Source: Octopus sinensis
Lineage: Eukaryota
Direction: 5' to 3'
DNA: 64,000 nt
Assembly (NCBI RefSeq): GCF_006345805.1
Contig: NC_043002.1
Location: 118,916,001 to 118,980,000 of the forward strand
Numbering within the stretch: position 1 is the first letter of the stretch; each line of letters starts with the position of its first letter. The notes under the pieces were generated by a model. That model ran no database searches, had not been told where the DNA came from, and saw nothing but the letters and a program-made list of their open reading frames with translations. A program made the position numbers and the translations under genes. Of this stretch, positions 16,862 through 49,277 are shown one piece after another.

Positions 16862-16971
16862 CTAAATAAATAGAAAAACATTTTAAAGCTACTTTGAGTA
16901 TCTGTGAATGGAAAAGATGTGAAAATATAAAATATTACACTTACACTGAAATTATTAAATTTATACAATAA

Positions 16972-17341
16972 CTAACAGTATCGCCCGGCGTTGCTCAGGT
17001 TTGTAAGGGAAATAACTATATAAGCATTTTTAGAGAGTTATAGCCAAAAAATAGCAAAAAAATTATGGTAAATTTTTTTTAAATCGTTGACTCATCGTAG
17101 ACATTTTTAGAGAGTTACTTCCCTTATATAATAGCGAAAAAATGCATTAAAATGGGAAAAAAATTATGGTAAATTTTTTTTTAAATCGTAGACTCATCGT
17201 AGACGCGCGCTAATACCCAGAAGGGCTCGATATGAATCAAGACTATAAGATTGGTTAAACTGCACCGCAAAATGTGGGAGTAGTTAGGAATCTAAATCGT
17301 AGGAGATAAACAGCACACAACCTCACTTTTATATATAAAGA
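16972..17341 (-). mobile_element. Non-autonomous Helitron (~370 bp)
   Basis: Minus strand starts A|TCTTTATATATAAAAGTGAGG and ends with a subterminal hairpin CCTGAGCAACGCCGGG followed by ...TACTGTTAG|T (CTAG variant). Inserted between A and T with no TSD; has an internal duplication. Confidence 0.8.
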
Positions 17342-17986
17342 TTTACAAATATAAAAATGCATATTTCAAATAAAATAAGAGCAAATATACTAATAACATA
17401 CATTAGGGTGATGATATAGCAAAAATAACTGCTTCAGATTAAATATGTACTAAAAGCATTTGGTTTCATTCCTACAAAGCGCAAAGTAATTATCATTAGC
17501 ATAAATTAGACCAAATAACCCTTTACCAAAACAGATAAAAAGATACTTCTGTGTCAGTGCTGGGAGGAAGATACAGTCCCTCAGGATATGCGGGATGCTA
17601 ACAGCATTACGCTTTACAAAAACAAAAGTGACCGTGGTGATTGTAACAATTCCCTTCTTTCCTGCCACCAAAAAAAATCATTTTGTTCACATTGTAATGC
17701 AGTTGACAAATCAAATAGAAACAATGTAGGGTCAAGAAGGCAAATTTTGTTGAGAGTGTGACAACCTGACAAGTGCTGGTGCCATGAGAAGATGAACACA
17801 CTCTGTAAAGTGGTTGGTGTTAAGGAGGTCACTCAGCTGTCGAGATCATGTCAACAGAGATGACTTAAGACAGACTTGATCTGCCAACCTGGCAGTAACT
17901 CAGAATAAGAACCAACTCAGACCATTCAACCCATGCCAGAATGGAAATGGACTTAAAATGAAGATGATGACAACTTCACTAAAAAT

Positions 17987-18370
17987 GAGTGGCTGTGTGG
18001 TAAGAAGCTTGCTAACCAACCACATGGTTCCGGGTTCAGTCCCACTGCGTGGCATCTTGGGCAAGTGTCTTCTGCTATAGCCTCGGGCCGACCAATGCCT
18101 TGTGAGTGGATTTGGTAGACGGAAACTGAAAGAAACCCGTCATATATATGTATATATATATATATGTATGAGTGTGTATATGTTTATCTCTCTAGCATTG
18201 CTTGACAACCGATGCTGGTGTGTTTACGTCCCCATCACTTAGTGGTTCGGCAAAAGAGACCGATAGAATAAGTACTGGGCTTACAAAGAATAAGTCCTGG
18301 GGTCGATTTGCTCGACTAAAAGCTGTGCTCCAACATGGCCACAGTCAAATGACTGAAACAAGTAAAAGAG
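17987..18370 (+). mobile_element. SINE family A
   Basis: Same consensus. Confidence 0.88.
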
Positions 18371-18749
18371 TATTCCAGATATGCCTTAACTGTGAAAATT
18401 GAACTTGATATTTTATATTCATTATAAGCAATAAATGTGATAGGTTGAAAGGGACTCAAAGCTTTAGGTGTATCCAATGTAGCACTGGCACAACTAGCAA
18501 CAGAAACAGTAATGAATAAAAGACTATGGACTATTCAAACAGCTCGAAAGAAGTAGATAGATTGCTGAGTTGTGTTAAGTTATTAGTACTAAATTCAAAC
18601 TAGGGTAACACAGTAGCTAAAATAGTAAGTTATAAGAGATTAGAGATTTCTTTCTGAAGGCATTAACTATTAACATCACAAACTCATTCAAGTAGTTCAT
18701 GAGGTACACAGTACTTTAAATATCTAATTCATTATCTTTTATCTTTGAT

Positions 18750-19152
18750 GGCGCAGGAGTGGCTGTGTGATAAGTAGCTTGTTTACCAACCACATGGTTC
18801 CGGGTTCAGTCCCACTGCGTGGCATCTTGGGCAAGTGTCTTCTGCTATAGCCCCGGGCCGACCAATGCCTTGTGAGTGGATTTGGTAGACGGAAACTCTA
18901 AAGAAGCCTGTCGTATATATGTATATATATATATGTGTGTGTGTGTGTGTCTGTGTTTGTCCCCCTAGCATTGCTTGACAACCGATGTTGGTGTGTTTAC
19001 TTAGCGGTTCGGCAAAAAAGAGACCGATAGAATAAGTACTGGGCTTACAAAGAATAAGTCCCGGGGTCGATTTGCTCGATTAAAGGTGGTGCTCCAGCAT
19101 GGCCGCAGTCAAATGACTGAAACAAGTAAAAGAGTAAAGAGTAAAAGAGAGT
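18750..19152 (+). mobile_element. SINE family A
   Basis: Same consensus, with an (AAGAGTA)n tail. Confidence 0.88.
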
Positions 19153-19499
19153 AAGTGTCTTTTTATGATAAAAATATTAGTAACCCTCCATATAAATTGA
19201 AGCCCTTATGATTTATTCTTGGTAAGAGTGAGATTTAACATTAAATTAGCAACTTATCCACCAATTAAGAGCTTTATTTATTGTGTAGCCAATGTCTACC
19301 ACTGAAATTTTTTTTAATTGAATATCTTTTGCCACCATATGGATACTTCAGGACAGCTAAATAAATACTCAGAGACAACCAGAAAAGTGAGCTCAGAGCT
19401 GGCAACTGCTCAGAATTATCTCTAGTAATTCTGTTCTACTCATTAGAAAAGATAGATTACACTGCGTAACAAAGTTCTTTCTATTCATATTTTTGACTT

Positions 19500-19900
19500 T
19501 GGTCAATAAGTGCTATTTCCTATTTGCTTCTATGTAGAAATGAAAGGAAATGACTACCATTCCCTTCAAACTTTGCTTTTACCATCTATTTTGAAACTGA
19601 CATTTTCCATTACATTTCAGACAGATTCAGTGTTGAGTTACTAAAGCAGAAATACTGTTATAGCAAATATTCTGCTCAATACCACAAGTTTGCTTGTCTA
19701 TAACTACTTGAGCATGTCCATTAGTGGTTAACAATGAGCAAGAGTAGAGGGATTCTTTGGAGTTGGAATAAATGTAACACTAGTAAAGTTTGAAGTAAAT
19801 AGTAATTTTTCATACTTTCTAGGGGTAAGCAAACGGGAAAAAACAGTTGCTCGACAAGGACAAAAATTGTGTCAAACAGTGTTACGATATAAGTAAGATT
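19500..19900. repeat. Dispersed MITE-like repeat with internal imperfect inverted symmetry, copy 1
   Basis: Colinear with 63165-63615 (ttcctatttgcttctat...ctaccattcccttcaaactttgcttt...ttctaggggtaagcaaa). Confidence 0.7.
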
Positions 19901-20482
19901 CATTTTAAAAAGGAAAATATTAAAACTGCATAAGAAAGCTGGACTTCAAATCAACCACTGCAGCATCTATAGAATTAGTTCTCACACCAATTATGTAACA
20001 TTCAAAAAGTTGCATTATCATAAATGACTTTCACATACTAGACTCTTATTCCACTAATAAGTGATATACCTCAGTCTAAGTGCAATTGTAGGAAACTAAC
20101 TGTGATCTAGAATTACTATTTGCTAGAGACCCTGAAAATCTATAAATCTTAATTGTTGCATGCTAAAATTGCTAGATTTGTACCAAAAATTATCATTCCC
20201 AAAGAACCAGGCAGGCATTCCACTATATCTTTTAATATATTCCCAACTCTTTTATGATTTTCCAATAAAAGATTTTCATGATCAATAAAACATGACCCCA
20301 AATAGCTTTTACTAGACATTTTTCGTCTTCTTTCACTGACCTTGAACCCTTTGCTATTAATAGTGTAAGATAAATATGGAAGAATTCAATATAAAAAACA
20401 AAGTTATTAAACAATTTCATGTATGGTCAATGGTTTACTTTGCTATTTAAAACTGTATCAACGATGGTTTTCAGTAGTTTAA

Positions 20483-20686
20483 CCTTTTAGCATTTAAACC
20501 GGCCCAAATATTATGCTTTATGTTGAAACCAGCCAGATCCAGCCTATCACACCTACCCTACAGTGTCATTCTGAAAATAAACAATCACATCATCAATATT
20601 TCGAAACTACAAGATAATGCATGATTAATTCAAAATAATATGAAAGAATAAGCATTACATATGACAGTAATCTGAATGCTAAAGGA
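20483..20686. mobile_element. TTAA MITE family 2
   Basis: TTAA|CCTTTTAGCATT...AATGCTAAAGGA|TTAA. Homologous to 23219-23439 and to decayed copies at ~1150-1366 and ~4590-4786. Confidence 0.75.
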
Positions 20687-20899
20687 TTAAACAAACTGCA
20701 AATTTTTATGTCAGCAATCTTTGACCAGTTGCAATGCATGTTAAAATATTTGAGTATTAAATACGGTTCATCAAGTGAAAAGATGCCTTTTGTGCATCAT
20801 ACAGCCAGCAAGTCTCCCACTTAAATTGCAGCCATTCCTTTAGTCACTTGCCAAAAGAGTGTGTACTAACTTTGCAGAAACCTCCCACCTATTATTGCT

Positions 20900-22260
20900 C
20901 AAGCAAATGCATCTAATGGAGAGTTTCAACATTTACTGAACACTTCTCTTGAAACACTATAATACACACTGGATGAAACTATTCACAAACTTATCTTTCC
21001 CACTAGTCTCCCCATTATGTACACATACATGCCAAGCAAGAAAACCCCTCTTCTCACTTCAAACCAGCAAAGCTGCTAATCTTAACAACATCCCTTCAAA
21101 TACCCTAAAACACTGCACACTAGAGCTATCCCTAATCCTTGCCTTTTCATACATCTCTCTACTGATATCTTTCCCATCCTTTGAAAACATGTCTAAGAGC
21201 AATTTTTCTAATTTGGCCAATGAATAACTTATTGCTTTCACTACTGACATCTCAAGAGATGGAAATAGACACTTAACAACCACCTTCAATCTTGTTGCCT
21301 GTTGGACCATCAGTACAGCAATCCATTCGCTAAACACCTGCTTACTGTGTTATTCACCCTTGAGAAGTGAACATAATGCTATTGCATTTGACATCAGTAT
21401 TGTATTTGATCACATCTGGTATGAGAATCCAAGAAACCTGCCTATAGGCTTCAGTCATTTCCTCTTTTTCATTGCAAGCTTCCTTAACATGCACTGCTAG
21501 AGTTTTCTTTCGGGATCGATGGGCCACGCCTTCGTACTGAAAATCGAGATCGAGCGAGCTTTTGCCCTTTTGCTCGACGTGTGGTTTCCGTCCACGCTGA
21601 GCTCGCCTTGGGACACCTGCGTTACCGTTTGACAGACGTACAGCCCCAGTCAAACTCCCCGACCGACACTGTTCTCGACTAGAGAACACAATCAAATTTG
21701 GTGTGATCCAAGGTTCAGTTATGTACCCCACTCTTTCTTCCCATAAACTGTTGTCACTTCAAACAATGCCCACCCCACCAGACATTCTACACAAAGACAT
21801 CATCCGCATGCAATCTAAATATCTCTTGTTAAACTAGCACTGCCTCTGAGATTTTGAAAACACTCCAATGGAGATATGGCAATCTTATCTTTCAAAAAGC
21901 ACAAAGACACAATCACTGCACAATCTTGGACAATACAAGAATTAAAATTTTCAGTCTCTAGAAGTGTTTGATTTCATTATCTTTATAGGCCTTTCCTGAC
22001 AATCTTACATTCATAAGATAGCGAACATTGCATTCCATAAGACTAACCTTCCTCTTCTGTAGCAGAGAATATTCAGCTTCTGTATAACTCAAGTAAGAAC
22101 TATCATGGAAAACTGTTCCCTGCACACAAAAATCCTAAATTGCATCTAAAAGAAAGCCATCTTGGTAGCTGGTAATAACTTACTCAGCACACAACCACCT
22201 GTGTTGTAATGCATAACTCATTTACTTCCTTAAAAAATTTTTTTAATGACAAAAATTAAG
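20900..22260 (+). mobile_element. Highly decayed non-LTR retrotransposon RT (CR1/L2/Jockey-like), interrupted by the 28S fragment
   Basis: Remnant RT motifs IAFDISIVFDHIWY (~21381, cf. ALDISKAFDRVWH), GVIQGSVMYPTL (21700, cf. GVPQGSVLSPTL) and TQVRTIMENCS (~22087). Many frameshifts; ends approximate. Confidence 0.65.
21503..21678 (-). pseudogene. Retroposed 28S rRNA fragment (domain V region)
   Basis: Minus strand GGGGAGTTTGACTGGGGCTGTACGTCTGTCAAACGGTAACGCAGGTGTCCCAAGGCGAGCTCAG...GGGCAAAAGCTCGCTCGATCTCGATTTTCAGTACGAA matches conserved eukaryotic LSU rRNA. Only ~165 nt, flanked by CTAGAG direct repeats. Confidence 0.93.
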
Positions 22261-22302
22261 ATCAAATTTAACAAGACTTCTCCACACATGAATGACGGTA
22301 TC

Positions 22303-22516
22303 TCTGGCAGAAACGTTAGCACACCGGGTGAAATGCGTAGCCGTATTTTGTCTGCAGTTACTTTCTGAGTTCAAATTCCGCCGAGGTCGATTAAATAAGT
22401 ACTAGTTGCGGGGTCGATTAAATAAGTACTAGTTGCGCACTGGGGTCGATATAATTGACTTAATCCGTTTGTCCCCTCTGTGTTTAGCCCCTTATGGGTA
22501 GTAAAGAAATAGGTAT
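22303..22516 (+). mobile_element. SINE family B (internal deletion/duplication)
   Basis: ggtcgattaaataagtactagttgcg is duplicated. Confidence 0.8.
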
Positions 22517-22924
22517 CTCTGAATCATTCACGAGCAGCAACCATACACATAGGGTCACACAAACCACTTCACCCAATTATTCTCACATTTTTCTCCTTCT
22601 GCAGACAACAAATATCCGATTTCAACATCAACACCTGTGAAAATCTTGAACACTGCTGCTTCCTAACTAAACCAAGAAAAAAAAAAGTTACGACATTAGC
22701 AGCACTACCAGCTATATTCTAAATTTATTATAAATACTGCATAATTGAATCATAAAAATAAATAAAAACACACAGGTGTATATTCTAAAGGTAAAGGAGA
22801 TATATATGAATATATATGCATGCACAAATACAAGATTGAGAATGTAAATTTAAGAGTTCATGAGCTATAGGATTTATTTCAGAAAGTGACAAATACTAAT
22901 GTGACTAAGGATTTGTGCTTAGTG

Positions 22925-23208
22925 TTTCAATGATTCGTTGCTGGGTCATTTTTCCAAGCTGGGGCACCCCCTAGAAGGGTTTAGCCAAGCAAATCGACCT
23001 CAGAACTTACTTTGAAGTCTAGTACATATTCCAATGATCTCTTTTTGCTGAACATAAACAAACACCAGTTGTCATCAAGTGGTGAGAGACAAATGCATAC
23101 ATACACATAATGAGCTTCTGCACAGTTTCTGCTTGTTGGTCACTGGTCAACCCAGGACTATAATAGAACCATGTAGTTGCAAAGCAAGCTTCTTAACCAC
23201 ACAGTCAT
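22925..23208 (-). mobile_element. Old, decayed family A-related SINE
   Basis: gtttcaatgatt...gcaaatcgacc...gcttcttaaccacacag in reverse orientation. Confidence 0.5.
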
Positions 23209-23218
23209 GTTTGTTTAA

Positions 23219-23439
23219 TCCTTTAGCATTTAAACTGACATATCTGGCCCAAATATTTTATCTGTTTCATCTTCAAACCAGCCACATTGGACCTCTCATA
23301 CCTACTCTACAATATTGTTCTAAAAATAAACTTTCACATCATATTAAAATCTCAAAGGTACAAGATAATGCATGATTAATTCAAAACAATGCGATTAAAT
23401 AAACATTACATTTGACAGAGTAATCTGAATGCTAAAAGG
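23219..23439. mobile_element. TTAA MITE family 2
   Basis: TTAA|TCCTTTAGCATT...AATGCTAAAAGG|TTAA. Confidence 0.75.
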
Positions 23440-23763
23440 TTAACTACAGTAAAGTTGTTAATCAGAAGCTACACTCCTAAACAAAGTTCATTAGAGTAGG
23501 AGGAGTCATGCAAAATAAATAACACAAATCAACATGTCTATGCTAAACTCTAGAAGATTAAAATTAAACACATCCACTCTCCACGAAGGATATTTCTAAA
23601 AGGAGGGGGGGGTTACTAAAGGAAATCTTCACAGGAAAATTAAATAAATTAAACACTAGTTTAACATAAAATACAGTATCACTGATATATATGGCAATTA
23701 GAAAACATTCAATTTCCTAACTTGAATCCTAATGTTTAATTTCACGTTAACTAATATTATATA

Positions 23764-24024
23764 TTTACGGAGATGTACTCGCATAGCAAGTGATTTGATC
23801 TGAGATCGTATGCTGGAACGAAAACAATTGCAGCGTGGAAGGTGTTTGTAAGCCATTTAAGAAACACACAAAAGCCGTTCGATTCACTTCAACATTTAAG
23901 TTTAATTTGTCAAAATATTTTCGTCGCTAAAATCCGCGACCTGTTCACTGACAAAAATCCGTGCTGCATCTGAGCATTTGTGTGTTTCTTAAATGGCTTA
24001 CAAACACCTCCTATGCGGCAATTG
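23764..24024 (-). mobile_element. Small foldback insert, putative non-autonomous Penelope-like (pLTR) derivative
   Basis: 49-bp inverted arms 23824-23872 / 23977-24025. 12-bp flanking direct repeat TAATATTATATA (23752-23763, 24025-24036). Internal hammerhead-like motif. Confidence 0.6.
23906..23955 (-). ncRNA. Minimal type-I hammerhead-ribozyme-like motif with variant core
   Basis: UUUGUCA-GUGAACA-G-GUCGC-GGAUUUUA-GCGAC-GAA-AAUAUU-U-UGACAAA: 7-bp helix I, 5-bp helix II, palindromic helix III, core G3/C8 instead of C3/G8. Confidence 0.55.
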
Positions 24025-24402
24025 TAATATTATATACAGAGTTAAAAAGATTACTGGCAATGAACAATATAAAGTGACTGCAAAAGAAAACGATAATAGT
24101 ATTGAGTGATTAGTACAGATTATATATAACCAGAAGAGAAATAAATCCAAGAGCACTTCCTGTGAAGTAATTTAGATTAACTAAACAAAATTAGGGTTAA
24201 TAAAGAATATTGAGGAAATGAGATAACATTAGACAAAAACAATTGACCAGACCTACACAACAGCAGAATATAAATGATGATGATGATGATGATGAAGAGA
24301 TGCTTTCTGCTGCCAGTAATGCACAAATTCTGCATACAATACCAATTATATCAACTAAGCCAACAGTTAAAATGTTGAAATACACTATATTGATAAAACA
24401 GG

Positions 24403-24903
24403 TCATCATCATCATTTAACGTCCGTTTTCCGCGCTAGCATGGGTTGGACGGTTCGACCGGGGTCTGGGAAGCCAGGGGCTGCACCAGGCTCCAGTCTGA
24501 TCTGGCAGTATTTCTACAGCTGGATGCCCTTCCTAACGCCAACCACTCCGTGAGTGTAGTGGGTGCTTTTTACGTGCCACCTGCACAGGTGCCAGGGGGG
24601 GTCTGGCATCGGCCACGATTGGTTGGTGCTTTTAACGTGCCTCCGGCACGGAAGCCAGCCAAGGCGACGCTGGCATCGGCCACGTTCGGATGGTGCTTTT
24701 TATGTGCCACCAGCACAGAAGCCAGTCAAGGCGGCGCTGGCATCGGCCACGTTCGGATGGTGCTTTTTATGTGCCACCGGCACAGAAGCCAGTCGATGCG
24801 GGGCTGGCATCGGCCACGTTCGGATGGTGCTTTTTATGTGCCACCAGCACAGAAGCCAGTCGAGGCAGCGCTGGCAACGGCTACGTTCGGATGGTGCTTT
24901 TTT
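24403..24903 (-). mobile_element. Family C RTE-tail repeat with expanded ~65-bp tandem subrepeats
   Basis: About five units of gcacagaagccagtc...ctggcatcggccacgttcggatggtgctttttatgtgccacc at 24600-24903. Confidence 0.85.
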
Positions 24904-25924
24904 ATTCAATTGGTTTATCTTGCAAATTAGAAAATGGCAGTTCACATTCATTAACAGCCAATTAAGAGTAACAAGTGGTCTAATTTTTCTGCTACTAAAG
25001 ACTAGATAGGACTTATGACTTCATACTTTTGAAATACATTAAAAATTATTAAAATAAATAGAATGTGATCTGATTAAAGTAGCAATCTACTTGAATCAGT
25101 TTGTAGCTAACATGCAGCAGGAAGATCAATGCTTGCAAACAGCAACAGATATTACTTAACTGGCATATTCGATTCCGATAACTAGAACTGGATTTGATAT
25201 GTTGACAGTGGTCTGAATTTAGCCAACATAGAAAATAAGCAGAACAGGAAAAGTTGTTCTGCATTTCACTGGTAAAAGACAAAACATGGTTTCATAATGC
25301 AGCATTTTCATTTCTGACAGTTTCTCCATATGTAACTCATCCAAATTGAACCAACCTCCTTCCCTTTTAATTTTACATATATCTGTTCAATTATTTTGCT
25401 TTCATGTGGAGATATAATCTTGTTAAACACTTTTTTTTTATGATTCATTTAAAAGAAAATAACATTGTTAAAATTTATAATTATTGATTACCTAATGACT
25501 AATTAAAGCTTCTGTAAGTGGTACAGAAATAGCTAACAGCAATAGACTGTTTGCATGGCTGGAAATTCTCTTACCGTCCTGATATGATTATTGCTAGAGA
25601 TTAAATGTTCAAGTTGGTTTCATAACCAACCCACCCAACACTGCCCAAAACTTTTCACAGTCCAATTCATCCATATTTACCTCTTCATATTTAAACAATA
25701 ATATTCATGTTAGCGAAAGCATAAGACTTAGCAAGATAAACAGTTGCTGTACAGTAGCTGATATTTTTATGGGAAATTTGTGTTCTCCAAATTAAAAAAA
25801 AAAAAAATTTTCCACGTTTTAACTTTTTATCCTTGAAATAAATGAATTTTTGAAAGAAGTGGCAACAAATAAAAAATGCAATAAGAAAAACAAAGAAATC
25901 AAATATTACAATTTCTTACCACTA

Positions 25925-26857
25925 AAATAAGAATAGCCTGGGCAAAGTTTAGAAAGCTTCTACCCCTACTGGTGACAAAGGGTCTCTCACTCAGAGTGAA
26001 ATGTAGATTGTATGATGCATGTGTGCGAACTGCCATGCTTCACGGCAGTGAAACATGGGCTGTGACTGCTGAGGACATGCGTAGGCTTGAAAGAAATGAA
26101 GCTAGCATGATCCGCTGGATGTGTAATGTCAGTGTGCGCACACGACAGAGGGTAAGCGCCCTGAGAGAAATGTTGGACATAAGAAGCATCGGATGTGGCG
26201 TACAAGAGAGACATCTGCCCTGGTATGGTCATGTACTATGGAAGGATGAGGAGAGCTGTGTGAAGAAGTGCCACTTCTAAACAGTTGAAGGAAACCGAGG
26301 TAGAGGTTGACCCAGGAAGACATAGGATGAGGTGGTGAAGCATGACCTTCGAACGTCGGGCCTCACAGAGGCAATGATAAAAGACCAAGACCTCTGCTGT
26401 GACTGCAAAGATCCAGCAAATAAAGTGAGTTCGCGGCTGTATCCTACGCCAGTTTTGCATAACCAGCCCCATCCCACTCAAAAGTACCTTGGATCGTAGA
26501 GTGACCTGCTGTGCTTGAGGAGACCTATTGAGTCAAGTACATCAACATTAAAATGAAAATCAAATGGAAATTGTAGTGGTGATGCCGGTGGCATATAAAA
26601 ACACCATCCGAACATGGCCGATGCCAGCACCAACCATGACTGGCTTCTGTACGAGTAGTACGTAAAAAGCACCAACCGATCATGGCCGTTGCCAGTTTCC
26701 TCTGGCCCCTGTGCCGGTGGCACATAAAAAGCACTCACTACACCTACGGAGTGGTTGGCATTAGGAAGGGCACGAGCAGTAGAAACACTGCAAGATCAGA
26801 CTGGAGCCTGGTGCAGCCTCCTGGCTTCCCAGACCCTAGTCGAACCATCCAACCCAT
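25925..26857 (+). mobile_element. 5'-truncated RTE-clade LINE (RT C-terminus plus 3' UTR)
   Basis: TKGLSLRVKCRLYDACVRTAMLHGSETWAVTAEDMRRLERNEASMIRWMCNV...LPWYGHV, then GRGxPRKT-like sequence with stops. Continues into the family-C 3' tail. Confidence 0.88.
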
Positions 26858-27699
26858 GATAACAGCAATTCAAACATCAATACTGAAAGCAAGAATAAAT
26901 TCATTCCAGAAACACAATGGAACAACAACTTCTAAATATTTCCCAGGTTGAAATTTTCAAAAGAAACTCAACCCAATCAATCATCTCAATGATTCAAAAA
27001 CCAATTTTGGCATTTAATTTTTGTGTTGGTATATTCCAAACAACTACTGAAACAAATCTTTACACATAACACAAAGAAAAAAGGTGGCTATGGTCTTTTA
27101 AACACCTGGATGAAATTCAGGCCTTTTTTGCAGAAAATATGGGCATCAGGAATCTCTTCAAGACTGGAAACAACTGGAACAAACATTTTAGTCATCCCTG
27201 TTTCCACTACCACAAACAGTACAGCTCTTTGTCATGCCAGCACTTGCATATATGAGACACCAGTAGTACACTTGTAGACAAAGAACATTCTGCCCTCTTA
27301 TTTGAAGATTCTATCCATTGGTATTTAGCTCTCTGAAATAGTCCACATTATAGTCAATGGTGAGATTCAGAAAGAGGTTGATTAATTCAAGTATTTTGAT
27401 GCTACCTTCATTGATAGAGAGGAGATGTCAGCACCAATCATGCACAAAGTACATTCAATCCTTTTGAAAGCTGGTCTGGTTTGGAGATACACGTAACCAT
27501 AATAATTCACATTTAACAAGTGTTCACCATTTCGCAGTACAACTGTGCAGTGACCAATAAGGCACACATGCGTTCAAATTGATCAATTTCACTGAATTCA
27601 CTACACTGACACTTAGGATTTTGTGTGCAACTCCACTGCCAGATCGAGTCCCTTCAACAGCTTTAGCTCAGAAAGAGCCTGTATTGTTTTGGTGACGAA

Positions 27700-27922
27700 T
27701 AGGCAGAAACGTTAGCACGCTGGGCGAAATGCGTAGCCATATTTCGTCTGCCGTTACGTTCTGAGTTCAAATTCCGCCGAGGTCGACTTTGCCTTTCATC
27801 CTTTCGGGGTCGATTAAATGAGTACCAGTTACGCGCTGGGGTCGATGCAATCGACTTAATCCCTTTGTCTGTCCTTGTTTGTCTCCTCTGTGTTTAGCCC
27901 CTTGTGGGTAATAAAGAAATAT
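27700..27922 (+). mobile_element. SINE family B
   Basis: Same consensus. Confidence 0.85.
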
Positions 27923-28410
27923 GTATTGTTTTGGTGACATAACAGTCATGCCAGAGCCCTTCTCAGAATGGCTTAAAAAGAAGGACAGGTAGCTAAAAAT
28001 ATGGATCTCACCATAGACTAATGGTGTAAATAAATACACCCTAAAAACACCTAGATTTACATAAATGGTGTATTAACACCTATCTATCTCCATGACAAAA
28101 TACAATGAATGGCTTTCTTACTAGTTCGAATATGCCCAAAGCATATTTGAACTGGTAATTATCTTGTATTTATAAGCATCACTACTTAGTGCTCCCGCCC
28201 AGTAATAATTACTGAAACAAGAGGAAGAAGCTGATTTATAAGAGACAAAATGAATATTGGAAAGACGAAGGTGATGGCAAATTAAGTATTTAGTAAAATG
28301 GAAAAAGGTTAATGATCATGTAAGGATCACTCACCTACTTTTAGTGAAAGGAGTATACAAACTTTAAGTACACTGGAAATATCCACTGAAAATGTAGCAG
28401 TGCCACACCC

Positions 28411-28900
28411 TAGTGGTTGAGGGGAACCTGTGGAAGAGGTAGACCCAGGAAAACCTGGGACGAGGTGGTGAAGAACAACCTTCGCGCTTTAGGTCTCACA
28501 GAGGAAATGACCAGAGACCGAGACCTTTGGAAGTATGCTGTGCGCGAGAAGACCCGGCAGGACACGTGAGGCCATAACCCATGGCCCCTAACTGGGACGT
28601 AGTCAGTCCACCTGTGCATACCTTCCTTCTTGGGACACTTGTGAAGACCTGTTGAGGCAAGTGAAAATCAAACCAATCGATGAACATCAATGGAATTTGT
28701 ATTTTTGTGGTACCAGTGGCACATAAAAAGCACCCACTACACTCACGGAGTGGTTGGCATTAGGAAGGGCATCCAGCTGTAGAAACACTGCCAGATCTAA
28801 CTGGCCTGGTGCAGCCTTCGGGCTTCCCAGACCCCAGATGAACCGTCCAACCCATGCTAGCATGGAAAGCGGACATTAAACGAAGAAGAAGTAGTAGTAG
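28411..28900 (+). mobile_element. RTE-clade LINE 3' end
   Basis: VEGTCGRGRPRKTWDEVV remnant followed by the family-C tail and a trinucleotide end. Confidence 0.8.
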
Positions 28901-29154
28901 TAGCTAAATCTAGGAGAAGCTGGAAGAAATGACAGACTAGATCTTGGAAACAGTATGAAGACAGGTGTGAAAACATTTTAAGAGACAAAGAATGAAGAAG
29001 GTGGATCTACTCAACAGTGGCTAAAGCAGGATGCAGATGAAAGAAATTGCGAGAAATGATAAGGAGCATGTTAGTGAGTAGTACTGTTGAAACTACAGGA
29101 AAAGGTGCATGTTGCATGTTTAAGAAGCACTGTGATTTATGGGAATGCAATATA

Positions 29155-29556
29155 GGCGCAGGAGTGGCTGTGTGGTAAGTAGCTTGCTAACCAACCACAT
29201 GGTTCCGGGTTCAGTCCCACTGCGTGGCATCTTGGGCAAGTGTCTTCTGCTATAGCCCTGGGCTGACCAATGCCTTGTGAGTGGATTTGGTAGACGGAAA
29301 CTGAAAGAAGCCTGTTGTATATATGTATATATATATGTGTGTGTGTATGTGTTTGTGTGTCTTGTCCCCCTAGCATCGCTTGACAACCGATGCTGGTGTG
29401 TTTATGTCCCCGTCACTTAGCGGTTCGGCAAAAGAGACCGATAGAATAAGTACTGGGCTTACAAAGAATAAGTCCCGGGGTCGATTTGCTCGACTAAAGG
29501 CGGTGCTCCAGCATGGCCGCAGTCAAATTACTGAAACAAGTAAAAGAGTAAAGAGA
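29155..29556 (+). mobile_element. SINE family A
   Basis: Full-length copy. Confidence 0.88.
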
Positions 29557-29912
29557 TATGGGTAATAGAAGTGAATCAGCAAAGAATGCTGGGGAAAAAA
29601 AAAAACAGAAATGAGAATGGCTCAGTGGCAGAATGGAAAGAATGGTTCAGTGACCGAGTGGAATACTGGAGAGATGGAGAGTGAGTGAACTGCAGAGAAT
29701 GATGGAAATACAATTAGAAATGGAAATTGTGAATGAAAATGAGATGAAATGGCTGGGTCATATGTTGAGGAAATATCAAACAACTTAAATAATTCCAGAG
29801 CAAATTTTTTAGAATAAATCCTTTTTATAATAGGCACAAGGCCTAACACTTTGGGAAGGTGTCCAGTTGATTACATCAACCCCAGTGCTCAAGTGGTACT
29901 TATATTTTAACA

Positions 29913-30146
29913 AGGCAGCAAGCTGGCAGAACCGTTAGCACGCCGGGCGAAATGCGTAGCCGTATTTCGTCTGCCGTTACGTTCTGAGTTCAAATTCCGC
30001 CGAGGTCGACTTTGCCTTTCATCCTTTCGGGGTCGATTAAATAAGTACCAGTTACGCACTGGGGTCGATATAATCGACTTAATCCGTTTGTCTGTCCTTG
30101 TTTGTTCCCTCTGTATTTAGCCCCTTGTGGGTAGTAAAGAAATAGG
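29913..30146 (+). mobile_element. SINE family B (tRNA-related head, Meta/MESC-like core), nested in an older opposite-strand relative (~29840-30282)
   Basis: gctggcagaaccgttagc...gagttcaaattcc (B-box)...gcctttcatcctttcggggtcgattaaataagtaccag core...gtgggtagtaaagaaata. Confidence 0.85.
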
Positions 30147-30325
30147 TACTTATTTTATTGACCCCAAAAGAATGAAATTCAAAGTTGACCTTGGCGAAAT
30201 TTGAACCTAGAACATTAAAGTAGACAAAATGCTGCTAAGCATTTTGCCTGGAATGGTAATGATTCTGCTAGCTCACTGCCATTTTAGAATTAAATAATCC
30301 CATCAAGTAATAAATTCTTTTAATA

Positions 30326-30560
30326 TTTATTTCTTTACTACCCACAAGGGGCTAAACACAGAGGGGACAAACAAGGACAGACAAAGGGATTAAGTCGATT
30401 ACATCGACTCCAGTGCGTAACTGGTACTTAATTTATCAACCCCGAAAGGATGAAAGGCAAAGTCGACCTCGGCAGAATTTGAACTCAGAACGTAACGACA
30501 GACGAAATACGGCTACGCATTTCGCCTGGCATGCTAACGTTTCTGCCAGCTCGCCACCTT
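30326..30560 (-). mobile_element. SINE family B
   Basis: Reverse complement of 29913-30146. Confidence 0.85.
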
Positions 30561-30863
30561 AAGATGACATATATGTTGTCATATACATATGTTGAAAGTT
30601 TAAGTACAGGGCTTAGTTATTGTGTTACATTCATGATCACGAAATCATGGTTTTGATTTCACTTTGCTCCGCAATCACTTTGACATCTGACATGTGGCGG
30701 CACGCTGTGCAGCTGTACTGTAAAAACATTTGATCACTATAAACAAATCATCTCTACAGGTTGTTTTGCAAGAAACTGCAGATCCATTATCCATAACAGG
30801 AGGGTTCCCAATATGTTGAAAGTAAATGTTTGCAAAACTTGTTAACTATGGACATTTGTTTAA

Positions 30864-31074
30864 CCCTTTCATTACTGTATTTATTTTGAGATGCTCTGTG
30901 TTTCTTTCAATTACTTTAAATATAAACAAAGAATTTAGTAAAATAACTTAGTTATCATTCAGCTAGTGTTAGGAACATAAATTGTGACTAAGGGTTGGTG
31001 GAAGATTTTAATTCAAAACTTATGAAAGCGGGACATTTTACCATGGAGCCAGAGCTGGTTTAGTAACAAAAGGG
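30864..31074. mobile_element. piggyBac-type MITE family 1
   Basis: TTAA|CCCTTTCATTAC...GTAACAAAAGGG|TTAA. Confidence 0.85.
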
Positions 31075-31449
31075 TTAATAACTATCACAAACACCTCCAG
31101 AGTGCCGTACAGCAGTAATGGATTCTCAGTTTTCTTATGCCAAGGCAGAGGGTACAGAAACGAGTTTCAAATGCAAACATCTTCAATGAATCCTATTTAT
31201 TTTCCTGTAGAAATACCAAACGTCACTGCTTTGAGACTGACTTTCATAATCCTTAAGTAAGCACAGCATTGTAACCCAAATCAAATGATGAAAGGAATTC
31301 AAATCAAATCAATCTAAGCTCAATTCAAAACATAAATACTACTATGTTTTATCTAAATATCTATTATTTAATTTGCTCTGAGGTTGTTTCAATTCGTACC
31401 TGAAAAGGTATAGTAATAAGAACTTAAACTGCGAATTTCCATTTATTCA

Positions 31450-31910
31450 TTCATTATCATTTAATGTCCAGCCACTCAGGCTTCATGTCTGTTTTAGCAT
31501 GGCTTCTACAATTGGATGCCCTCCCTAACACCAACCACTCTACAGAGCGTACTGGGTGCTGTTACGCAGCACCAGCACAGGTGTGTTTACATGGCATTTA
31601 TTTCAGTCTCTTGTCATTCCCTCTGTGAGTCCCAACATCTGAAGATCGTTTCTCACCCCTTTGTCCGTCTTTCTGGGTCTACCTTTTCCACATGTTCTCT
31701 CTACACTTAAAGATCAGCACTTCTTGATGCAACTGTCCTCATTCATATGCATTACATGACCATACCAGCTCAGTCTTCTCTCTTGCACACTACATCTGAT
31801 GCCTCATATACCCAGTATTTTTTTCTCAAATCACATACTGTTGTATATGCACACTAACATTACCCATCCATTGGAGAATACTGGCTTCATTTCTTTCAAA
31901 CCTTATGTCT
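31450..31910 (-). mobile_element. Decayed RTE-clade LINE 3' end
   Basis: Reverse complement resembles 26090-26400 (gaaagaaatgaagccagt..., tggtatggtcatgtaatg), plus the tail motif ggatgccctccctaacaccaaccact. Confidence 0.65.
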
Positions 31911-33252
31911 AAATATTTTATTCTGGAGATAGCATTTGTAACACTGCAACTCTCAGAGAATCAAATACACTTAATACTTGCTTTCTGTCAAATTGGTTTC
32001 AAATTTTTGGCACAAGGCCAGTAGTTTTGGGGGAGCAATTTTTACATCAACCCAGTACTCAATTGGTACTTATTTTATCAACCCTGAAAGGCAGTAAGGT
32101 AAATCAACCTTGGCAGAATTTGAACCCAAAACAAAGACGAAATACTGCCAAGCATTTTGCCCAACATACTAACGATTCTGCCAGCTTGCCACCTTTATGC
32201 TTTCTGACAAAATGCCAAAGAATACCTTACACTCTGTGCACCTAATATTTGCTTCCTTTGGGTATTCAAAGTGAAACCATCTCTCAGATATGAGGGTTCT
32301 TCGTATGCACTACCAACATAGTTTGATCTTGTGAGTCTTCAAACACTTCAAAATCTAAAATTTTTGCAGTTTTCCAACAGAATTTGTAATGACATTAGCA
32401 CAATTCCAATAAAAGCAAAGGTTAGAATGAAGAGAATGCAAAGACTTTTAGGGAACACTCGTCTATACACTAAAATTCTTAAGTTCTCTGCTTGTCCTGA
32501 CCCTTTTCTCTACTTCATACATGGTCAAAACCCCTTACACAAACCATTATCCACACTTAGCTTTTCAGACCAATCAAGCTTTGAGAAAAAGGCTATGCAA
32601 AAATGCTTCTGAAAGCAGGTAACTGCAGTAAGTTATCTTTATAGTGACTAAAGTCATGCAACTATGTGACCTCAATGACTGGTATGGCAGCAATTTTCAT
32701 TTGGGCAGGATATAGGTGCAGTCAAGATGTGAGTCATGACAGACAACTATAAAAGATTACTTTAGAGAAGCAGAAAATGCAATTGTGATGACTAATGAAG
32801 AATAAAAAAAATCATTTTCTCCGAATATTGATAAAATCACAAGAGATACTTGCTGCAATCAAATTATGTAAAATACAGCTCATACAGACTAATACAACTG
32901 ACTAGTAACTCAGGTTTCAGAAAATCTAAGAGAGGGAGCACTACAACAAACAAACAATATCAGTTCAAGAGAATTATCTCAGAATTCAGTGAGTAAAAAT
33001 GACTGCAATAATATTGTTGGCTAAAGAAGAAAGAAAAACATGAGTCCATTCAAAACACAGAAAAGAAGATGTGAAACTATGTACCAAAATATAAACCTCT
33101 GAAGAGAATTTTTCATCCAAAAGAGTTTAAATTTTAACAATCATTGAGAATTGGTTAAGTATAAAAACAACCCCAAAAAGTGTAATTCTTGCAGAACTGA
33201 AACCAATATATATCATCATTTAGTATCCATGTGTGTGTGTATATATATATAT

Positions 33253-33720
33253 CATCATCATCATTTAACATCCACCTTCTATGTTGCCATGGGTGGGATG
33301 GTTTGCCAGGAGCTGGCCAAGCAAGAGCCTACACCAGACTTCTGTAACTGTTTTTGCAGGATTTTTACAGCTGGATGCTCTTCCTAACACCAACAACTCA
33401 GCAAAATGGACTTTTTATGTGCTTAAACAAGCAAAGGCGAGGCAAGTTTTGGCAAGGTTTTTACAGCTGGATGCCCTTCTGAACACCAACCACTTTACAG
33501 AGTGGATTGTGGCACCTGCACTGACAGGGTCACCAAGTAACTTGCAAGACAAAAATTATTTGCAAGGCAAGGGGGCACTGGAGGAGGTGACCTTGTGTCA
33601 GGTGATGAAAGATTATAGTGAGACAGAGAGAAACAGAAACAGGTGTCTTGCAGTAGAAGAGGTACAATGTTACCCACCTGGAGAGTAAAAGAGGGAGATC
33701 AATAATGAAATCAGAAACAG
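33253..33720 (-). mobile_element. Decayed family C-related tail repeat
   Basis: catcatcatttaacatcc...acagctggatgc(t/c)cttc occurs twice. Confidence 0.55.
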
Positions 33721-34868
33721 GTGTGCAGCTGCAAGATGTATATGAGAGGAAAGAGATAGAGCATATTTTTGTGTTAAATAGTTATTTTTAACATACTTTT
33801 TCTGCTTCAAAGCTACAAATTTATATTCCTTGCGTACTAAAATTTCGTTAAATATTAATGAGTAAGCTGAACTTGATTTGGTCTTCCAGTCGAAATTGAA
33901 TATTTTCAGATTTTATAATGAATGCAGAATTGTGTCTTTAAAAGGCAGACAGTTCACAACCATAAACAGCATGGAAAAGAAATGATCATCAGCGTGTGTG
34001 TGTGTGTGTAACCTTGTATCAATATTGAACTCAAGTCCTCCTACAAGTTATTGAAGATAGAAGATACTAGAAAATGTAATATAATCCATGCTAAAAACAA
34101 ATTTCTTCTGAGCTACTAGAAATAATAGATTCGATAATTAAGCATCCAATTTTCTTCACATATTTGTGTTTACTAAATGGCATAATTAACTGAAATTAAT
34201 GGAGCAAGTATGCTTGTAACTAGATAACATGAAAACAAATCTAGAAATGGTTACCCATTTCAGACAAGCTGACTACCATAAACATTGTGTACCTTATCTG
34301 AAGACAATGAAAATGCTTCAATTTATGACTTTTTACAGCTTCCATGAACCTTACTTAATGCAACAGGATTCAACACTGCAAATAGTAACAGTTTTGTTGA
34401 TGAATGTAACTAACCTTCACATTGCATCTGTTGTCTTTGAATTGTTTTTTATTTTCTTGTCTTCATAAAGGCTAAAATTGCTTGCAGTGTGCAAATTAAT
34501 GCCTATGAATTGATCAAGATCCTCACAGTCTGGTCCACAATTACAGCAATCTATGAGTGACATTAGACATTAACTTTGTGCTCAGAATTACAAATACTGT
34601 AGTTTAGAGTTCTTCATTAAACCACTTCTTATAAACTCTTTTTACATAATTCCCTCAAGACATAACTGACAATACACAACTACATTTTAAGAGAATCATT
34701 ATGCAATAAAAAAAAACTTACTTTCTTTTAATTAGAGCAAACTATTAGTCATTGGATAGGTAGTCACAGTACAGTCAATACATAAGACTTTGCTATGTTA
34801 TATTCCACTACCTCTTTCAACAAAATGTTTATTTCTATTCCACCTCAGTATCTCAAACTGAAAAAAGG

Positions 34869-35065
34869 GCACCTGTGCAGGTGGCACGTAAAAAGCACCC
34901 ACTACACTTGCGGAGTGGTTGGCATTAGGAAGGGCATCCAGCTGTAGAAACTCTGCCAGATCAGACTGGAGCCTGGTGCAGCACCTGGCTTCTCAGACCC
35001 CGGTCGGACCGTCCAACCATGCTAGCGCGGAAAACGGACGTTAAACGATGATGATGATGATGATG
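34869..35065 (+). mobile_element. Family C RTE-tail repeat
   Basis: Ends ggacgttaaacgatgatgatgatgatgatga. Confidence 0.8.
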
Positions 35066-36836
35066 AATGCACTCAATCCACAATGCCTTAAAGACAACCA
35101 TTTTCCTCCCTGTTATTGTATGCCAGGTGACAAAGGAGCAAGATGAGACCTGTCCAAACAACAACAAAATAGAAAAGGAGATGTATGATGATGATGATGA
35201 TAGCGATCTATTCAGCACTTCCTTATTTGCACAAATTTTCACTGGCTTGTGAACAAAATTCTCTGAAACTATGAACTCTGACCACAGAAAAACAATGATC
35301 ACATTCTAAATAACCATTACTTTCTACAAAAGTAATTTAAATTACTCAGAATACCCTATCCACTACTCTCTCCAGCAATTCTATTCAGACACGACTTGGA
35401 TATGTTCACAAAATGAAAACCGACAAGTGCTTTCTAAGTGCATAATAAGCTTAGATACTAACAATATCATTACAGTTTGGTTACATATAAAAATTACTAT
35501 AAAGAAAATTGAAAATTGTTACCTTATTTAAAAACATAACAAGGGGAAAGGGTTTGAACCAGGAATTATACACCTCCAAATATCACGAATATACCAATGA
35601 TACAAAACGTTAATGCAAGATAAACATACTCTAAGCATTCAATCACAATATAATATATGCTAATATCTGAAATCACTTTAAAACCAAGAGCAAATTTTGC
35701 TGTAGCGTTATGCGATCAATTAATGAATACACTAATGAAATGAATTTCAGTGAATTCTGAAGGGCTTTAATCACAAATAAAAAGAGGACTTCACATGATG
35801 GATATTTCTTCTGATAATGAAAGAGCATTTGAAGATATTTGCAAATTTGAATAAAGTCATTCTAAACTAGGTGTAAAATGAGTGAACAATCTACGTGGTC
35901 ACTCGTCGTGCTAGAAACAGCAGCCATATCTTTCTCAACTTACACCTTCACCGTCTTTTATGAAAACAGGCCATTAGATAGTGTAGTCTTAAGATACCCT
36001 AAAAAGGCAAGATGATCATGGCTGGAATGGTTTTGATCAAAATTCCTCTCGGTCAGAGTTAACCTTAGACTAAAAACTAGATTTTGAAGGCCTGTAGATA
36101 CATACGTAATTACTCGCTTTCTATAGGTAGTGTTTTTATTATTATTATTATTATTTTATTTTATTTAATACGAACGTTTTAACTTCATAATGATATCATT
36201 GGTGTCATATATATATTGTTATAACAGATTTATAAATTTCCCAAAACATATTACTGGTGTCCTGAAATAATATGATGCTTCAAATACAAAGAAAATATTA
36301 ACGACGGGGTACATGCGAGTCAGCCTCAGCCAATTAACCTAATTAACTCGTGTCACACACCTCACAACAGGTCACCTGGCTACTAACTCAGTTATCTCCC
36401 CTCTACATAGCGGAAGTAACCTCTGTGTAATAGAATATTTCAAGAGTCAGAACAGGTAGATCCTAATGTAAAAGGTAAAAAATCCTGTAGGATTTCAAAG
36501 ACATTGATTTTTACTGAAACTAGTAAAAGTTAAACACATTATCAATAAAATATTTTCCACGAACATTTAATTTCTACGACGCCACGATCTGTATTATTAA
36601 ATTCTTTAAGTTCATGTAACCTTTCGCAGGAGGTTCCGCTTGAACGACATCAAATATGTATATGTGAGAAAGAAAAGGTTTAGAGAGACAGACAAGAAGA
36701 CCATTTCGACAAAATTAGCAAATGAAACATCAAATAATTTAAACTTATTTGCCCAAGTACACAACACAAACTATCTCAGGGTATCATTATTAGTAGAGTA
36801 TAAGTGTTTTAACACACACACACATATATATATATA

Positions 36837-37231
36837 CAAATTGAGATAGGGGTTGTAAATGCAACCCTACATGGGATAACATATATCCAATATACTGCTA
36901 GTGAAGTACCCAACAAAGTTAATACATAAATGTTAAGAATTGCGATGCAATTAATTCATTTACTGTATTATATGGGCAAAGGTAAAATGTTTTACCACAA
37001 ATTCATAATACAAATTAAGAAAATGGAGAAATACATCCAAATCAAATATCGATTACCAGATAATACCCAATCACATACTTTATTAAAACCACCACATAAG
37101 AAACTTTAAGGTCAAACATAATAATATAGACCTTAAAGTTTCTTGTGGTGGTTTAATAAAGTATGTGATTGGGTATTATCTGGTAATCGATATTTGATTT
37201 GGATGTATTTCTCCATTTTCTTATTTTGTAT
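36837..37231. repeat. Foldback insert with ~105-bp inverted arms in a TA/CA tract
   Basis: 37008-37113 and 37129-37231 are near-perfect reverse complements with a 15-nt spacer. Both ends abut microsatellite. Confidence 0.8.
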
Positions 37232-39062
37232 ATATACATACATATATATAACGACCAACAACCTAAGAAAAAAATCAGGTTGCTATGCACACTACTGATA
37301 GAACTGGTAAGCTTTTCTCCACTAGATACACTGACAAAAACAACAAAAGGGAGGAAAATACAATCTAATTATTATAATTAACTGAGAACTTGTGAACATC
37401 TTTTTAACCTCAAATTTTTCAAGAAATAATTATAAAATACGCATTTCCATCATTTGGGGAAATAATTATCCAAGTCTATAATAGAATTCAATGCTATTGT
37501 ACGACTAAAGAGCAAAATTCCGCTGACGAGTGCTGTAGATTCAAACAGAAGGGTATTTTCTTAATATTACACCCATCTCACGAGACGGGTGTGATAGTAA
37601 AAATTTACCCGAATTGCAGTGAGGGAGAAATGTAAAATAAAATTTTGAAGAAAAATTGTTTCACTGTTGGGAAAAACCACCTAATAATAATTCCGTGTCC
37701 TTTTCCCCATGAGGTTGTGATTCCTAAGTCCACCGATCAGAGATTAAACCAAATTCATTGAAGCTATATATATTTCTCGCATATGAAATGAAGTAGCGAG
37801 ACACGATAAACTAAATTTCATGAACCGGCAGAGGAAAACTACGCAATTACAGGACACAGTAGCCAAATCTTTCATCTACCCCACTCCTCTTACACAAAGA
37901 GGAAAGAAGACATCTGGAATGATAGAGAGAAAAATGGGATGTATACGGCGGGAACAATATCGAAACGTTCCCGCCGTATCACTTCCCCCCATACCCAATC
38001 AGAGTTTGGAACTAGACTAAAACTAAACGTATTTTGATTTATTAGAAAACAAACCGTCTTTTACGGCGAAGGACGAGGGAACATTATGGGAGCAGATTAG
38101 AATGTTGGTACAGTATTCAGGTAAGAGAGAGAGAAACATACTGTACACAGAATAGACCCAGAAAAAATAGCTTCCCAGAGCCAATCAATACTATGGGTAT
38201 TTTGTTAATGCCTTAGCTAGGCCCATTCAAGCGAAACATCCCCACCATTCTACAAACCTACAGAGTAAAGGGATGGGGTAGTACCTCCTTCTTCATCTTT
38301 ACCACTAGTCCTTGGAGGTTGTACTAACTAGCTCCATTATTCGATTGATAGAGAGGTTGCGAGCGCTTGATAACATTCCAGATGTCAAACGCCCACCCAG
38401 TTTTTGGTCTTCCCCCCGAACATAGGACAGCAGTTCCGTTAAAAAGAAAAAACGATAAGCTATGGGGAGGAAATGTGCCTCACAGTACATTTCTGCATAT
38501 CATCAACAACATACCCGCGTGGGGGGACTGCCTGACCAGATGAACGCACGGCTAAGATTCAGTATGGTGAAGCGACAAGACGGTCAGATGGCAGCATATA
38601 AGATGGAAGCCCATATAAGCGTTCGGTACCTCTGATCGACCTTGCAGGGATAAATGCCTCTCAAACCGTTTCTAGGTGAAAGTGTTTACCCTCTCGTAAT
38701 TTCGCACCAATTCCCAATTAGCCGTATCAGTCGGTCGGCCCCAGGACCCCCATCACATCTAACTGGCGGCCGCCTCTCAGTGCGCCAAGCTGCAAAACTG
38801 ATTTGTCTGGGGTTAACTTTTGCTCCTGTCACCTTAATAATTGTTTTTTAAGCACAGACACAACTTAAAAAACACTTCCTAACAGACAGAAGATCATACA
38901 ATTTATGGCGAGACATAAATATCGATTAAACAAACTTCTGTAACCAGGCTTGTACTTATTTACCGAGCCCGGAAGAATAATAACCAAAAACGACATAGGC
39001 AAGATTTGAACTCGGTAACGAAATATTGCCTGCCATCATCTAATGCTTCTTGCCAGATTATT

Positions 39063-39213
39063 AATTCCGCCGAGGTCGACTTTGCCTTTCATCCTTTCGG
39101 GGTCGATAAATTAAGTACCAGTTACGCACTGGGGTCGATGTAATCGACTTAATCCGTCTGTCTGTCCTTGTTTGTCCTCTATGTGTTTAGCCCTTTGTGG
39201 GTAGTAAAGAAAT
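39063..39213 (+). mobile_element. SINE family B (5'-truncated)
   Basis: Core and tail only. Confidence 0.8.
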
Positions 39214-42200: not shown

Positions 42201-42225
42201 CTATCTATCTCTCTCTCTCTCTATC

Positions 42226-42284
<59 letters not shown>

Positions 42285-42525
42285 CAATAATTAAGGACTG
42301 AACACGAAAAGTGGACAGTCAATATGCTAGATATAGACGTCAAATCGCCATTCTCCACAAAGAGTGGAGAATGGCGATTTGACATCTATATCTAGCACGT
42401 TGACAGTCCACTTTTCGTGTTCAGTCCTTAATTGGTATATATAAATATTTTAATCTTCGGATTCTTTTTAATATGCTAGACCACTGGTTTTAATTGACTA
42501 ATATCAATTTCTACCCTTAATTGAT
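42285..42525. repeat. Foldback insert with 70-bp inverted arms in a (TA)n tract
   Basis: 42289-42358 and 42364-42433 are reverse complements with a few mismatches and a 5-nt spacer AAAGA. Confidence 0.8.

Positions 42526-48766: not shown

Positions 48767-48799
<33 letters not shown>

Positions 48800-49214: not shown

Positions 49215-49277
<63 letters not shown>

Follow-up and report, generated by a model that had tools for sequence, protein, structure and literature searches.

Hammerhead ribozymes are recognized by a nearly invariant core, and a short foldback insert in an octopus intron raises the question of whether a motif with its 3-8 core pair exchanged is a hammerhead at all and, if it is, whether it cuts. 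The insert lies in a 64,000-nt stretch of the Octopus sinensis genome (contig NC_043002.1, positions 118,916,001 to 118,980,000), all of which was analyzed and is called the window here. Its features are listed in Table 1.

Table 1. Features of the insert and its surroundings (window positions)
Feature	Position	Strand	Remark
Minimal type I hammerhead motif with G3-C8 core, extra G after A9, and palindromic helix III	23906..23955	-	predicted cut 23913/23912
3' part of Penelope-like pseudo-LTR (pLTR), forward copy	23825..23976	-	ends at the family's fixed pLTR end (23825)
Inverted 5'-truncated pLTR arm	23977..24024	+	copy of about 23825-23872; begins at the pLTR end
60-nt tail beyond the pLTR end	23765..23824	-	copies have their fixed end at its 3' end, the likely reverse transcriptase (RT) start site
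Start of the element open reading frame (ORF)	23765..23856	-	ATG 23856-23854, first ~30 codons; stops at the copy's fixed 3' end
12-bp AT-rich target-site duplication, element 3' side	23752..23763
12-bp AT-rich target-site duplication, element 5' side	24025..24036
Inferred family transcription start	23971	-	A(-23) relative to G3, within TCAG; most frequent 5' end among short copies, mostly with an untemplated G
Intron 1 (33 kb) of E2 ubiquitin-conjugating enzyme gene (UBE2N-like)	16862..49890	-	insert in sense

A hammerhead motif with a G3-C8 core

A first-pass annotation described the minus strand of the insert as a type I hammerhead, and each part that it named is present base for base. By direct reading, UUUGUCA (23955-23949) pairs with UGACAAA (23912-23906) as helix I and encloses the core GUGAACA (23948-23942), a single additional G (23941), helix II (GUCGC, 23940-23936, with GCGAC, 23927-23923, and a loop of 8 nt), the 3' core GAA (23922-23920), the palindrome AAUAUU that serves as helix III (23919-23914), and U17 (23913). 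U4, G5, A6, A9, G12, A13, A14, the A15.1-U16.1 pair, and H17 are all found in the window motif, and the conserved core positions are kept in 92 to 99% of the approximately 105 to 130 family copies available per site. The expectation that CUGANGA searches would miss this motif also holds: with G3 and C8 it departs from the literal C3/G8 consensus, and an Rfam search of window positions 14000 to 34000 gave no hammerhead match up to an E value of 10, as expected for a core that is both noncanonical and minimal.

The minimum free energy fold of the window motif consists of helices I and II (z = -3.56), and none of 200 shuffled sequences is equally stable. In a 207-nt RNA, the pair probabilities of helices I and II are 0.89 to 1.0, while that of an intramolecular helix III is 0; with the foldback context included, helices I and II have probabilities of 0.6 to 1.0. 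Helix III would cost the monomer +5.4 kcal/mol and is thus not stable there. The AAUAUU palindrome permits pairing between two molecules, as in the minimal hammerheads (min-HHRs) of Penelope-like elements. A strand-swapped dimer model (-28.8) and two monomers (-28.2) are about equal in calculated energy, and the most stable cofold (-32.7) is another, extended dimer and not the strand-swapped hammerhead model.

Genome-wide, the G3-C8 pattern has 5,965 matches compared with 2 for a reversed-pattern control. A covariance model (R1), built from C3-G8 and U3-A8 families alone with the window's own family excluded, places the better of its two window matches at 23905-23956 on the minus strand (34 bits; E value roughly 5e-7), which is the sole strong match in the 64 kb. 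Based on these pattern counts and the covariance model match, we conclude that the motif is not due to chance. That the G3-C8 hammerhead is real as a motif is well supported; its catalysis is a prediction. No second copy of the motif was found within the window.

The insert and its host gene

The foldback arms are confirmed at 23824-23875 and 23974-24025, although the description can be refined: the foldback is the inverted, 5'-truncated pLTR that normally accompanies Penelope insertions (PMC8557442). The predicted cut precedes the ATG of the element ORF by 56 nt. The window copy begins 5 nt upstream of the family's main start (23976-23972), which points to a slightly longer source RNA or to a junction. 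The same five bases, following an inverted arm, open several other copies, and this beginning could be either a minor start site or a truncation hotspot. The putative start of the RNA (23971-23965, with the presumed cap G) is also complementary over 6 to 8 nt to the end of the tail (23777-23770, minus strand), and the two ends of a short RNA could pair through it.

The insert was further proposed to be in sense with the UBE2N pre-mRNA. The host gene is on the minus strand. One of its exons is near 49920-49891, the next runs from 16861, and exon 3, near 5464-5315, matches Pfam UQ_con with an E value of 1.6e-22. The E2 identity, the sense orientation, and the position in intron 1 therefore stand, while the name UBE2N is one that we presume from motifs. 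The orientation is uninformative, since a chance landing among ~6,000 copies suffices to account for it, and the insertion most likely means nothing for the host gene. The same intron contains a fragment of eukaryotic LSU rRNA (21494-21685, minus strand; Rfam, 117 bits) and an array of about five 67-bp repeats (24559-24927) that lies inside a repeat recurring at other loci.

A young Penelope-like family

A search of the genome with the insert returned 2,555 candidates, the best 40 of which are 89 to 100% identical to it. Thirty copies that were fetched with their surroundings have a common fixed 3' end, a variable 5' end, and AT-rich target duplications; an inverted arm that begins at one fixed point is frequent among them. 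Among 84 copies picked by their tail, 31 have exact flanking repeats of at least 8 nt, mostly 12 to 13 nt, and many of the others lie within (TA)n. In some copies, the sequence upstream is rich in (CATA)n and leads back to the end of a GIY-YIG frame. In 24 of 30 loci chosen by their endonuclease end, the unit follows on the same strand, no more than 1.5 kb downstream (3 of these 24 loci are one segmental duplication), and the motif sits about 1 kb after the RT/GIY-YIG ORF. This, together with motifs at the same place in sister families, bears out the suggestion that the ribozyme is of the Penelope type.

The ORF recovered is an open frame of 1,042 aa with a YVDD motif, a Cys linker, and a GIY-YIG domain, the last matching Pfam over the C-terminal 123 aa (E value, 1.4e-5). 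Whole-protein Pfam searches gave no match for this ORF and a weak RVT_1 match for the sister protein; a 312-aa piece gave no useful Pfam match, and a PDB sequence search with the ORF gave 0 matches. A single ORF with RT plus a GIY-YIG domain at its C terminus, the organization of EN+ Penelope-like elements, is thus a property of the family as seen in its other members, the window copy having only the first ~30 codons. In tandem junction copies (L257 and L259), the tail continues into the ORF, and the same ATG inside the unit opens it. Partial tandems that form pLTRs, an inverted 5'-truncated copy, and a tail are all present as in Penelope elements; the tail, optional and 30 to 40 bp in the definition given in PMC8557442, is 60 nt here, and in the Penelope element of PMC11167929 the tail is the region where reverse transcription starts. 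We conclude that the insert is a solo pLTR plus tail of a young Penelope-like family in textbook Penelope layout. One candidate full element (C1, 32.59 Mb; spacing, 4.2 kb) was rejected, as it is really two separate solo copies.

A linker of the form C-X3-C-X2-C-X7-C precedes the GIY-YIG core, which contains C, C, H, and H. Neptune and Nematis elements are defined by a CX2-5CxxC linker between RT and EN and by CCHH in EN (PMC8557442), and by its linker this family would be of the Neptune or Nematis type. In an RT tree (quick search; 28 rows, none of them a named Neptune or Nematis reference), the window's family (family A) and a second octopus family (family B) are sisters with an SH-aLRT value of 100. 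A database protein with the source label Octopus vulgaris is almost identical to the family B protein, and contigs under five organism labels contain the unit. The hammerhead-bearing unit also occurs in tandem arrays of 170 to 200 bp (four loci) and of 400 bp (L269/L270), partly with G3-G8 or G3-A8 cores, and the 400-bp array junction retains an untemplated G.

Three Watson-Crick identities at positions 3 and 8

Positions 3 and 8 are G-C in family A and C-G or U-A in related families. A search by protein similarity led to family B (54% aa), whose motif at the matching position is C3-G8, and the C3-G8 pattern has 4,686 matches compared with 145 for the control. Small, older families have U3-A8 with an inner helix I identical to that of family A, although the total for the U3-A8 pattern (106, compared with 92 for the control) is hardly above background. 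Of the metagenome relatives found by protein, L286 has C3-G8 and L287 has U3-A8, right after their ORFs. Altogether, 11 metagenome loci gave 2 clear motifs, 1 weak U3-A8-like motif seen by eye (L288), and 8 without a motif, several of these 8 lacking the 3' region. The covariance model overlooked both the canonical motif of L286 and the motif of L288 and is too narrow for distant families.

Within family A, C8 accompanies G3 in 5,965 of 6,398 motifs, leaving 433 matches with G3 and another base at position 8 (control, 10). By eye, the first 100 of these comprise about 40 with G8, 44 with U8, and 16 with A8, about 17 of them from family B. The change from C to G at position 8 seems overrepresented, its bearers being scattered over subfamilies. 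G3-G8 copies were considered as an evolutionary intermediate, and this is unsupported, since 20 such copies are spread over several subfamilies by eye.

We aligned 21 motifs from these families. Eleven of the 15 pairs vary on both sides, a value reached in 0 of 500 shuffles, and pairing is 82%, compared with 24 to 45% in slid controls. For helix I, the comparison covers the inner four pairs; helix II is 93% paired. U4, G5, A6, G12-A14, and A15.1-U16.1 are invariant over the 21 rows, in part because the search patterns impose them. Helices I and II thus covary, with a result that is inflated by row selection and kinship: 19 of the 21 rows came from patterns in which the 3-8 pair and part of helix II are prescribed, and the rows are akin to one another. 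Complete (100%) pairing at 3-8 is therefore partly by construction.

Variation within family A was examined in 150 copies from 104 loci, 20 of the 104 having been chosen by core. Common non-CpG variants are found at 5 of 9 sites in loop II and N7 but at only 1 of 41 core and helix sites (P = 0.0003), and the single core/helix subfamily variant changes U-A to U-G, which keeps the pairing. Set against the remaining unit, in which 15 of 149 sites vary, the difference is not significant (P = 0.2). The idea that the core and helices are conserved above their surroundings is therefore upheld against loop II and N7 and not against the rest of the unit. In contigs of four runs, only two variants within the motif exceed 5%, this same U-G wobble and a CpG change at C11.1.

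Position 9 also varies. Among the first 100 family B matches, no core is commoner than CUGAUGC (A9C) with the extra G behind it (also at L128, 5363-5412), and U3-A8 relatives (L287 and L310-L313) have A9C and A9U too. It seems that position 9 is free in this clade when G follows and that canonical descriptors would miss such cores. In family B, the abundant A9C core coexists with fully canonical ones. Taken as sequence, the relatives with canonical cores at the same place support the view that the family A motif is a hammerhead by descent.

5' ends of copies and how copies may arise

A search with the tail gave 5,742 matches (control, 0). The 5' ends were read in 84 of the first 100 tail matches listed, all from contig C1, with one misaligned locus (L189) set aside. 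Thirty-five of the 84 start at -24 to -16 relative to G3, 67 run across the predicted cut, and only 2 have their start within 2 nt of it, so that no pile-up of 5' ends at the predicted cut is seen in this sample. Because the ends cluster 23 nt before G3 and only 2 of 84 are near the cut, we conclude that the RNAs that were reverse transcribed were mostly uncut.

Thirteen of the 15 tail-picked copies that stop at or beside A(-23) carry an untemplated G, as do 26 of 32 over all loci (not all independent), and the bases preceding it are unrelated (12 T, 8 A, 5 C, and 1 G). A copied cap G is known for other retrocopies, and the untemplated G is likely a copied cap. Read as a cap, it places the transcription start at A(-23), in a TCAG context. 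Drosophila Penelope has an internal TATA-less promoter (PMC2377424). Two other origins of the G were rejected: a spliced exon end, because the copies share no bases before the G, and fold-back onto the tail, which predicts GG, found in 1 of 26.

There are ~5,700 tails compared with at least 300 endonuclease-end candidates and at least 59 ORF-start candidates, a large excess of solo over ORF-bearing copies for which cap-to-tail copying of only ~207 nt would account. In the mechanism that we propose, an internal promoter would start a capped RNA 23 nt before G3, and the element protein would nick AT-rich DNA and begin reverse transcription within the RNA, at the end of the tail. Use of the tail near the RNA 5' end would give a ~207-nt copy that runs through the uncut single hammerhead up to the cap. 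In pLTR-ORF-pLTR read-through RNAs or transcripts of tandem arrays, two motifs might exchange strands of helix I and pair with each other through the AAUAUU palindromes; the dimerized motifs would then cut after U17, possibly helped by the element's protein, and the cut would trim the RNA to a unit that begins 56 nt before the AUG.

Does the motif cut?

We put at about 70% the probability that the motif is the pLTR hammerhead of a young, high-copy Penelope-like family, with cutting predicted to be slow and dependent on a dimer or on protein. Minimal Penelope hammerheads have no monomer activity and low dimer activity (PMC4209133), and a protein-dependent Penelope hammerhead partly regains cutting when given an engineered C3G/G8C swap (PMC11167929). 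Contexts capable of forming dimers exist in the genome, both as pLTR-ORF-pLTR units and as the 170- to 200-bp or 400-bp arrays. Since the cutting predicted is slow and confined to dimers, the window's lone intronic copy is likely inert.

A different reading keeps the element and the ancestry but makes the motif a noncutting folded 5' leader, serving protein binding, translation, or the promoter, with G3-C8 as tolerated drift; the lone copy is likely inert under this reading as well. We consider this unlikely, although a good deal is consistent with it. Besides the absence of copy 5' ends piled up at the cut, cores that are expected to be impaired have nonetheless multiplied, including A9C (abundant in family B), A9U, and, among the 433 G3/non-C8 motifs and in the arrays, G3-G8 and G3-A8; the spread of A9C and G3-G8 means that activity may be dispensable. 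Hammerhead mutants of the anole element insert unimpaired in vitro, with no RNA-seq reads ending at the site (PMC11167929), and Naiads thrive without hammerheads (PMC8557442). Drift, on the other hand, does not readily account for three Watson-Crick pairs at 3-8 in related families, each switch requiring two changes, or for the invariance of the remaining core over the 21 aligned motifs, even if this is partly pattern imposed. Compensation at 3-8 and an invariant core are what selection on a catalytic fold predicts.

Co-option by the host, in which the window copy would cut the E2 pre-mRNA in intron 1 for regulation, is very improbable. The motif is intact and in sense, and helices I and II persist in the foldback context, but the copy is young, 93 to 100% identical to many others, and one of ~6,000, and it stands as a single motif in 64 kb when a monomer is unable to form helix III. 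Still harder to credit is a MITE or another kind of DNA element whose hammerhead shape is due to chance. The insert's shortness, high copy number, inverted repeats, and blank Rfam result would suit such an element; what argues against it is that one end is fixed and the other variable, that the inverted arms are variable too, and that relatives have canonical hammerheads at the matching place. The physical linkage to GIY-YIG ORFs, the C3-G8 motif of family B, and the ATG within the unit refute it.

Returning to a pLTR hammerhead that cuts, we advance a fuller account only tentatively and at somewhat less than even odds. The ribozyme would be an active natural G3-C8 hammerhead in a ~6,000-copy family with C3-G8 and U3-A8 relatives, some of them A9C, making three 3-8 identities in one lineage. 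Solo copies would be cap-to-tail transcripts of uncut RNA that record an internal RT start and cap copying, and the ribozyme would act only on dimer-capable (tandem) RNAs, sorting template from message.

Comparison with known hammerheads

The closest counterparts are the min-HHRs found in Penelope-like elements of metazoans (Cervera and De la Pena 2014, PMC4209133). Like the octopus motif, these are of type I, lie in a pLTR, and have an extra nucleotide that separates position 9 from 10.1, a G10.1-C11.1 pair, a short palindromic helix III, and commonly U17; they also exist as thousands of mostly solo copies, with inverted pairs nearby. The extra nucleotide, the palindromic helix III, and U17 are therefore standard in this class, and the G3-C8 identity alone is unusual. 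In contrast to the octopus motif, the extra nucleotide of the min-HHRs has the consensus H rather than G, and U3-A8 is the sole covariation described there; none of the 56 motifs of Fig. S3 in that paper is G3-C8, and neither that figure nor Table S1 includes a cephalopod.

Natural 3-8 covariation has been published as U3-A8 (Perreault 2011, PMC3088659; Schistosoma Cercyon elements, PMC4209133). Those covariants share with the octopus family a compensatory 3-8 change in nature, whereas in octopus two transversions turn the pair around, and related families of one genome have C-G, U-A, and G-C. In the literature surveyed, G3-C8 appears as a laboratory mutant only (PMC11167929, PMC3884650), and a natural G3-C8 core was not found there (PMC6765202, PMC6155905, and PMC11014351 included), in a survey that is incomplete, so that an earlier published example is possible. 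What appears to be new is thus the natural G3-C8 identity in a Penelope-type hammerhead, both Penelope hammerheads and 3-8 covariation being already known.

The Poseidon element PAc of Anolis (Frangieh 2024, PMC11167929) likewise has a pLTR hammerhead beside the start codon, AT-rich targets, a tail inside the ORF start that is the RT initiation region, and uncut RNA as its main substrate. It differs in that G3-C8 is a laboratory mutant there, that its cut site is 26 nt after the start codon rather than 56 nt before it, and that the octopus protein, of Neptune/Nematis type, has a Cys linker. Non-LTR retrozymes (bioRxiv 10.64898/2026.07.22.740005; see also PMC7229834) are tandem arrays of short hammerhead units derived from Penelope pLTRs; the octopus family has such arrays, but the window copy, unlike the retrozymes of the bioRxiv report, is a solo insertion with a target duplication.

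A G3-C8 family extends the natural sequence space of the hammerhead, the best-studied small ribozyme. CUGANGA and Rfam searches overlook thousands of motifs per genome, so that where an element has been said to lack a hammerhead, a second look with all 3-8 pairs and with position 9 left free may be needed. Natural controls for the role of hammerheads in Penelope elements are at hand in the sister families, and the cap-like G and the scarcity of 5' ends at the cut are genomic support for the finding in vitro that it is uncut RNA that serves as template.

Two minor observations concern individual copies. In three loci, a branch-point, a pyrimidine tract, and an AG that ends two bases into the inferred RNA (-22) lie upstream of the unit; this acceptor-like sequence resembles that of the pLTR intron of Drosophila Penelope, and no spliced copy was seen among the copies examined. 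Eight of the 84 sampled copies share an identical inverted junction at +3 and similar flanks, and these are one rearranged copy that has multiplied as a unit, probably inside another repeat.
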